DNA of 62,482 bases, filler included, from Collodictyon triciliatum (Eukaryota): NCBI GenBank assembly GCA_043381765.1. It is 12 parts of 12 records of this genome, joined end to end, with 100 filler letters (N's around TTAATTAATTAA, not from the genome) between each part and the next. Parts side by side here need not be neighbours in the genome. Positions count along the whole stretch, not along the records: positions 38,866 to 43,145 come from JBHJMP010005194.1; 11 more parts are not named here. The stretch is one strand, 5' to 3'. Numbering within the stretch: the stretch's first letter is position 1; the number at the start of each line of letters is the position of its first letter. The notes beneath the pieces are model-generated. The model ran no database searches. It was not told where the DNA came from and saw nothing but the letters and a program-made list of their open reading frames with translations. Position numbers and translations under genes: made by a program. Shown here in pieces: positions 42,001 through 42,694 of this stretch.

Positions 42001-42694
42001 AAGAAATGAAAAGATATGAACTTTGGATTATTAAATCAAGATATTCTTCTCTAGCAATTTGGATGTTGCTTTATTGAATGATATATGTGAATGACTAACG
42101 AATGTAATATGAAAAAAAGGGTTTAGTATATGTCGTGAAAGACGTTTTCATCAGGATAATAGAGAGCTCACCATTTGACACATCGCACTTATCTGATTGG
42201 AGGAGGCTATGGTACCCTTACAAATCGTACAGATCAACTGCACACACAACTTAAAAGGAAGAAGAAAAGCGGTGCCGTTAAATAGTACCAAAGACATCCT
42301 TGGAGTCATTCATCGCATGGTTTATACAATATCAAATTGTATCAATAACCATTGCAGATAATCACCTACAATCCCAGTTTTCGCAATATGGGGAAGGGAG
42401 GGAGAAGGAGGAGGAGAATATAACCAAGATAATGATGGATGAATGCACCGCAGACTCATGTATTGGACCAACTTCTCTGTTTGCTCGTCGGCTGTGATTT
42501 CCTGGGGGATCGCAGGTGAGGCAAACCCCTCGCATGGAATGGGCAAGGTCGGCCCAAGTATACGGTATCGCGTCTGGCTTAACCGATTGGTGATCGGGAA
42601 AGCGACGGCAAACAAGGCGAACTCCAAGCGGGACCGACTCAGTGCAGTCCATACAAAACGCAGTAAGTGCGTTGGTTTCGTACGGAAGCTCCAT
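39031..42694 (-). CDS. Dbl-family RhoGEF with N-terminal Parkin-RING0-like zinc module, CUE/UBA-like segment and two WW domains; 3'-truncated
   Basis: DH domain: [72 protein letters not shown]1: [28 protein letters not shown]2: [26 protein letters not shown]. Cys-rich exons at 42694-42473 and 42237-42172. Confidence 0.85.
41155..41258. repeat. (GTGAGA)n intronic microsatellite
   Basis: Hexamer run forming the pyrimidine tract before the WW1 exon on the minus strand. Confidence 0.95.

Follow-up and report, generated by a model that had tools for sequence, protein, structure and literature searches.

In Dbl GEFs, Vav, Dbl and Asef among them, the N-terminal region often serves to autoinhibit or to localise the enzyme, and the modules found there include a C1 domain in ARHGEF2/GEF-H1 and AKAP13, an SH3 domain in Asef, and a CH domain with an acidic region in Vav. 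A zinc domain with which the subject of this work has been compared is RING0, or UPD, of Parkin. According to PMC3730226 it comprises Parkin residues 142-227, and its zinc loops pair the first with the fourth and the second with the third. Its ligands, as given in PMC3104551, are C150, C154, C212 and H215 on the one hand and C166, C169, C196 and C201 on the other. The domain is described as unique to Parkin (PMC3730226, PMC4672691), as is its hairpin zinc arrangement (PMC4672691), and no PDB structure and no sequence in the human genome was reported to be similar to it (PMC3730226).

We have analysed a stretch of 62,482 nucleotides from Collodictyon triciliatum, the whole of which is called the window here. 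A Dbl-family RhoGEF gene begins on its minus strand with two coding exons at positions 42694-42172, and its product has the domain order Cys/His module, helical linker of ~70 residues, WW, WW and DH; the orthologues add a possible PH-like tail. A reading made from the DNA alone (referred to below as the sequence-only reading) had proposed that the Cys/His module is a copy of Parkin RING0 at the N-terminus of a RhoGEF. The present data establish the gene and its eight conserved ligands and lead us to a different classification of the module.

Relatives were sought with exon 1 by phmmer against 1.84 billion representatives (filter-only), which gave eight matches at E<=0.001. Only P0003 (E=2.8e-13, 53% identical) and P0004 (E=1.5e-11, 49% identical) are true relatives. 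They are Trinity transcripts with the source label Diphylleia rotans, and longer isoforms of them exist (P0011 and P0013, respectively). In P0003 and P0004 alike the module starts at residue 1, and two WW domains and then a RhoGEF domain come after it (Pfam E for the latter 2.5e-35 and 1.9e-36). Since these relatives are assembled mRNAs, they show independently that one transcript encodes the module together with both WW domains and the DH domain. When P0011 and P0013 were aligned to the window by tblastn, the match was colinear from 42694 to 39013, with the window exons in order along both proteins; it ends at P0011 residue 551, and a masked N stretch lies at 38766-38865. The remaining six phmmer matches (P0005-P0010) are due to chance, each aligning through 3 to 8 repeated short stretches, and P0005, P0006, P0009 and P0010 are repeat proteins (LPYTWN-type or CxxC repeat) of unrelated architecture.

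Wider searches did not enlarge this family. A profile made from the family alignment (A1) recovered the same two relatives only, among 3716 candidates (proteins of at least 241 residues). Homologue searches with exon 1 and with the first DH exon produced 7 and 153 candidates, none of which scored, and none of the 160 pattern matches in a metagenome scan with A1 was confirmed by tblastn. The module family as considered here consists of three sequences from two sources and, as far as these sequence searches reach, the putative domain was found outside the window only in transcripts labelled Diphylleia rotans. Literature searches found no publication on a Diphylleia RhoGEF.

The exons of the gene are listed in Table 1. 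The window is AT-rich, and the introns are short with GT..AG ends, which marks the DNA as eukaryotic. Exon 1 reads from the ATG to ...RRANRE, with a GT directly after; an in-frame TAA lies two codons 5′ of this ATG, and the start Met is common to both orthologues. The translation of this exon was as the sequence-only reading had written it, and its donor is confirmed by an X1 joint. For exon 4, the tblastn HSP covers P0011 residues 117-166 at 50% identity. The boundary between exons 5 and 6 is loose by ~3 bases on the microsatellite side of exon 5, because the contig-placing step passed over the microsatellite. Exon 7 has its start placed by a loose end in X1 record 2 and its donor deduced from a GT and the orthologue alignment. 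Joined by their coordinates, exons 1-6 give 244 open codons.

Table 1. Features of the RhoGEF gene, in positions of the window, with the evidence for each
Feature	Position	Strand	Content and evidence
Coding exon 1	42473..42694	-	Start codon and ligands 1-6 (C14, C17, C29, H35, C58, C61); translation, GT donor, joint 42249 to 42473
Intron 1	42250..42472	-	223 bases, GT..AG (plus strand CT..AC); X1 joint 'skips 223'
Coding exon 2	42172..42249	-	78 bases, phase 0; ligands 7-8 (C81, C84); joints 42249 to 42473 and 41957 to 42172
Coding exon 3	41906..41957	-	52 bases, Ser/Lys-rich linker; joints 41957 to 42172 and 41735 to 41906; open frame
Coding exon 4	41614..41735	-	First part of helical linker; X1 contig record 3, loose end into exon 5
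Coding exon 5	41314..41442	-	Second part of helical linker; X1 contig record 2, loose-end match, orthologue alignment
Coding exon 6	41018..41146	-	WW domain 1; Pfam WW E=5.8e-06, 26.7 bits vs cut-off 26.9; X1 record 2
Coding exon 7	40762..40875	-	WW domain 2; Pfam WW E=9.6e-07, 29.2 bits; orthologue alignment
DH exons (RhoGEF), whole span	39009..40531	-	Six joints in one 731-base X1 contig
DH exon pieces	at least 40531-40375, 40176-40084, 39943-39844, 39767-39664	-	X1 contig joints, tblastn with P0011/P0013
DH exon pieces, continued	39588-39493, 39359-39285, 39132-about 39009	-	X1 contig joints, tblastn with P0011/P0013

The joints come from X1, a public sequencing run whose record gives its kind, by a guess only, as RNA. 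Four contigs of this run are at least 99% identical to the window and skip intron-like segments, and the joints listed (9/9) all have GT..AG ends on the minus strand (CT..AC on the plus). At the end of one contig are 24 loose letters which look like a template-switch cDNA primer in reverse complement; such a template-switch-like end also points to a cDNA origin of X1. Two other runs, X2 and X3, had no contigs placed on the window. The X1 contigs and their loose ends chain exon 2 to 41957-41906, 41735-41614, 41442-41314 and finally 41146-41018, the exon of WW1. The sequence-only reading had assumed that the module is linked to the WW and DH exons. This is borne out up to the second WW exon, with exons 1-6 in overlapping contigs and a 16-letter loose end after WW1 running into the WW2 exon at 40875; no contig among those of X1 bridges the WW2 exon and the DH exons, and this predicted link in the window rests on the orthologues and on the colinearity of their tblastn alignments.

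One splice site had to be moved. The second exon had been placed at 42237-42172, of which the donor at 42172 (joint 41957 to 42172) and the phase 0 stand; the acceptor, on the other hand, is at 42249, 12 bases upstream, which adds four residues to the protein as first written. With the acceptor at 42249 exon 2 aligns gap-free to P0011 and P0013, while the one at 42237 would lose three residues. Two AG acceptors are in fact present 12 bases apart at 42238-42249 on the minus strand (aag/TTGTGTGTGCAG/TTG), and the X1 contig takes the upstream one. The downstream acceptor at 42237 may give rise to a minor isoform dropping the four residues just before ligand 7. At position 42538 one X1 contig, with a depth of 2.7, has G for the A of the window, which would replace Ser53, a residue that is not conserved, by Pro; the residue aligned with it in P0004 is Pro, and the difference may be an allele or an error. 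Long dinucleotide microsatellites are found in the introns of the gene, at 41147-41266 and 40621-40688 on the minus strand.

The surroundings of the gene contain several other features. Between 5451 and 59881 there are eleven pairs of 44-N runs, with 12 bases within each pair, spaced ~5,550 bases apart except for a single interval of 4,380; this regularity looks like a masking or assembly artefact and not like biology. Pairs at 38766-38865 and 43146-43245 lie on either side of the GEF gene. The region 43246-48580, upstream of the GEF gene, has, also on the minus strand, ORFs with much coiled-coil-like sequence, one of them with a P-loop-like GGKSAILTAL. These ORFs may belong to an SMC-type ATPase gene; Pfam found nothing significant in four pieces of this region other than the P-loop-like ORF. 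The plus strand has a convergent gene at 34587-37962 whose product contains leucine-rich repeats (LRR_4, E=8.3e-20) as well as an IQ motif (E=2.5e-05).

Downstream of the module, the RhoGEF domain (Pfam PF00621) is matched with E=2.4e-09 on an ORF at 39403-39645, and three further exons give weaker partial matches to it. The first WW exon, at 26.7 bits, is 0.2 under the Pfam cut-off while the second scores 29.2 bits, and the orthologues have two WW stretches each (47 and 42.6 bits). The orthologues contain WW and RhoGEF domains only by Pfam, plus a sub-threshold PH; the PH-type matches of P0004 reach 22.4 and 21.4 bits where 27.7 would be required. The full-length AlphaFold2 model of P0011 has a pLDDT of 63-91 over residues 131-290, which consist of three helices and then the two WW domains, the latter pair being modelled at 80-91. 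Foldseek on this model gave 11 matches at E<=0.001; the DH/PH part is matched by P-Rex1, Asef, collybistin and intersectin, and the tandem WW by PRPF40A, KIBRA and YAP. The helical linker, encoded within 41314-41735 on the minus strand (P0011 residues 135-211), has its three helices at pLDDT 68-86 and is ~50% identical between the window and the orthologue. By eye it may resemble a UBA/CUE-type three-helix bundle; there is no Pfam match to UBA/CUE in the linker at E<=10.

The module itself is defined by eight Cys/His columns, seven Cys and one His, that are invariant in all three sequences although these are only 45-51% identical. The ligand pattern is C-x2-C-x11-C-x5/6-H-x22-C-x2-C-x19..50-C-x2-C, where the window has spacings of 2-11-5-22-2-19-2, P0011 of 2-11-6-22-2-21-2 and P0013 of 2-11-5-22-2-50-2. 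The eight candidate zinc ligands picked out from the window alone are thereby upheld, and better than chance would allow. Cysteines are enriched about sevenfold in the module: P0011 has 7 in its first 90 residues versus 7 in the other 635, and P0013 has 8 in 120 residues versus 6 in 630. The extra Cys of LCVQ in the window, His52 and His67 are not conserved. Among the further invariants, V-P follows ligand 2 and R-E-L precedes ligand 7, while ligand 4 lies in H-Q-[ST]-V-[RK]-P, ligand 5 in R-G-x-C and ligand 6 in C-D; P-x2-W is likewise invariant. By tblastn the module is 49-50% identical between the window and the orthologues and the DH HSPs are 38-59% identical; conservation of the module within the DH range would be as expected for a domain under selection. 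We infer that the first ~88 residues form a compact module whose eight ligands would be enough for two tetrahedral zinc sites, and that the module probably binds zinc, with two as the likely number of ions.

This module appears to lie outside any family detectable with the libraries used (Pfam, PDB sequences and ESM Atlas). Pfam, which presumably includes a RING0 model, had no match at E<=10 for exon 1, for the read-through ORF or for the module region of P0003 and P0004. A Pfam match of DUF7351 to P0003 residues 5-101 was rejected, since it had E=0.075 and only 13.2 bits (cut-off 31.2); it is absent from P0004 and P0001. Against PDB chains, Parkin included, phmmer with a single sequence gave no match at E<=10, and profile A1 had a sole match at E<=10, to Integrator subunit 8 (E=1.4), with no Parkin. 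Parkin structures are indeed present in the PDB, with entries named in PMC4672691. In the ESM Atlas the best score was 0.78, to unnamed archaeal clusters and within the stated noise of the tool, and the 'named' search returned no usable match. HMMER-type sequence searches, however, would overlook a remote homologue. AlphaFold2 gave a pLDDT of 48.1 for a 110-residue module construct (3 alignment rows) and of 49.0 overall for full-length P0011 (8 rows), with 27-50 over the module. Foldseek on the low-confidence model of the construct (pLDDT 48.1) had none of its 22 matches at E<=0.001, the best being RuvC at E=0.8. With the full-length model no Parkin chain was among the ~40 matches listed of at least 500 at E<=10, a result that is uninformative on RING0 because the module is unfolded there.

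The proposal that the module shares true, if very distant, homology with Parkin RING0/UPD, placed here outside an RBR ligase and pairing its ligands as a hairpin (1, 2, 7 and 8 with one another, and 3, 4, 5 and 6), draws on real similarities. The eight ligands come in an order that fits such a nested arrangement, and the Parkin motifs used for the comparison, C154-x11-C166 with R163 at -3, P180-x2-W183 and M192-x3-C196, are all present in Parkin according to PMC3730226 and PMC3104551. C-x11-C is invariant in the module family and identical in spacing to C154-C166, between ligands 2 and 3. P-x2-W, first noted in the window as PYTWAD, is invariant in 3/3 sequences too, as a match at the level of the motif only, offset by 1-2 residues relative to ligand 3. 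The likeness seen in M-x-G-x-C is partial: the G at -2 of ligand 5 is invariant and the residue at -4 hydrophobic, whereas the Met itself is Leu or Phe in the orthologues. Similarly, the equivalent of R163, at -3 of ligand 3, is Arg in two of the three sequences but Gln in P0004. A hydrophobic stretch ahead of ligand 7 can be compared with F208-F210 before C212 in Parkin. Against these points, neither Pfam nor the PDB (phmmer and family profile) gave a RING0 match at E<=10, and the ESM Atlas gave nothing. Only the x11 and the final x2 agree with the Parkin spacings of 3-11-2-26-4-10-2 obtained from the ligands in PMC3104551, five of the seven being different; C-x5/6-H replaces C-x2-C, and ligand 8 is Cys and not His. 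The equivalents of K161 and K211, already noted as absent from the window, are missing in 3/3 sequences (G/S/A and I/V/L, respectively), and the protein has no RBR partner and no RING2 for a P/W pocket. One of the five matches on which the proposal had been built, A-x5-C, vanishes with the corrected exon 2 acceptor; it was a splice-site artefact, lost because the acceptor had been mis-set. Moreover, the likeness was picked out from among many zinc families, which creates a multiple-testing problem. RING0 identity thus receives no support from Pfam, the PDB (sequence and profile) or the ESM Atlas, and we regard it as decidedly improbable; it is unsupported rather than refuted, because AlphaFold2 left the module at pLDDT 27-50.

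The module could also be a divergent member of another known zinc fold, such as a RING cross-brace with long insertions or two sequential zinc-ribbon/treble-clef fingers, which we consider unlikely. Its ligand order C-C-C-H-C-C-C-C is that of the C3HC4 RING finger, and like it the module both starts and finishes with a C-x2-C pair. Zinc ribbons typically have C-x2-C knuckles, of which there are three here, and a length of 19 to 50 residues is tolerated between ligands 6 and 7, much as in the loops of RINGs and ribbons. However, the Pfam models of RING, LIM, PHD, B-box, FYVE and ZZ are all without a match at E<=10. In the C3HC4 consensus ligand 3 is separated from ligand 4 by 1-3 residues and ligand 4 from ligand 5 by 2-3, with which spacings of 5/6 and 22 are incompatible. 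The 22-residue segment does not behave as a floppy insertion since the invariant P-x2-W and R-G lie within it. That the cysteines bind no metal at all, and that the N-terminus is a disulfide-bonded or merely Cys-rich, largely disordered leader, would be in line with the low AlphaFold2 confidence throughout and with the lack of any matched metal-binding family. Low pLDDT is nevertheless what is expected from a three-sequence alignment, and the eight C/H are invariant with fixed spacing at ~50% identity while neighbouring residues vary. A RhoGEF is cytoplasmic, and disulfides are unusual in the cytoplasm. We give this last view hardly any credence. The reading that we favour, and hold to be rather probable on the grounds of sequence conservation and analogy, is that of a lineage-restricted structural two-zinc domain belonging to no known family, most likely the interaction or regulatory head of a WW-WW-DH RhoGEF. 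A new family does not explain why C-x11-C, P-x2-W and G-x-C coincide with Parkin RING0 residues.

If the module is indeed such a lineage-restricted two-zinc domain, the eight ligands would hold two zinc ions in a structural role, and the domain would serve as a protein-interaction or regulatory head that targets the GEF or gates the DH domain. As an alternative to targeting, it might keep the enzyme inactive until a partner binds, and the tandem WW domains could recruit partners with proline motifs. A regulatory or targeting role is suggested by analogy, because the N-termini of Dbl GEFs commonly autoinhibit or localise the enzyme. The module would then represent a small conserved zinc family, unnamed in the libraries used, that would help to annotate the signalling proteins of protists and would offer structural biology a target. 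This would not be surprising in itself, the host being an ordinary kind of enzyme.

The consequences would be broader should the module, against our expectation, turn out to be a true RING0/UPD-fold domain outside Parkin, on the RhoGEF of a deep-branching protist, with the two-zinc core and the Pro/Trp pocket kept and the phosphate pocket lost. RING0 would in that case once have been a free-standing mobile zinc module, captured later by Parkin, and its Pro/Trp pocket might receive an aromatic motif at the C-terminus of the GEF or of some other protein. If confirmed, the occurrence of RING0 in a second setting would be relevant to how this domain, central to Parkinson-disease genetics, arose and what it did ancestrally. 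Our literature searches found no 'RING0-like' domain in print, no description of a zinc module-WW-WW-DH architecture, and no Dbl GEF module paired with tandem WW.

Set beside the known systems, the module is like Parkin RING0 in having ~85 residues and eight Cys/His ligands for, as predicted, two zinc ions, and its ligand order would allow the UPD hairpin pairing described in PMC3730226 and PMC4672691. It differs from the Parkin domain in ligand 4 (His at x5/6 versus Cys at x2, part of a C-x2-C knuckle), in ligand 8 (Cys versus H215) and in the segment between ligands 6 and 7, which has 19 to 50 residues versus 10. P-x2-W lies 14-15 residues past ligand 3 in the module while P180-x2-W183 lies 13 past C166, and before ligand 5 a hydrophobic residue at -4 and G at -2 correspond to M192-x3-C196. 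In Parkin P180 and W183 line a pocket that takes Phe463 of RING2, whereas the GEF protein has no RING2 to dock. The module also lacks the basic phosphate pocket formed in Parkin by Lys161, Arg163 and Lys211. Finally, Parkin RING0 precedes the RBR (RING1-IBR-RING2), while the host of the module is a RhoGEF without Ubl or RBR. In overall layout there is a parallel with the Dbl GEFs that have regulatory N-terminal modules, which likewise place a small non-catalytic module ahead of DH-PH, although the module here is unlike the known ones in being neither C1 nor SH3 nor CH. Tandem WW proteins such as KIBRA, YAP, PRPF40A and the Nedd4-family ligases have two adjacent WW domains, as does this protein; unlike in those proteins, the WW pair here has the orphan zinc module on one side of it and the DH domain on the other.
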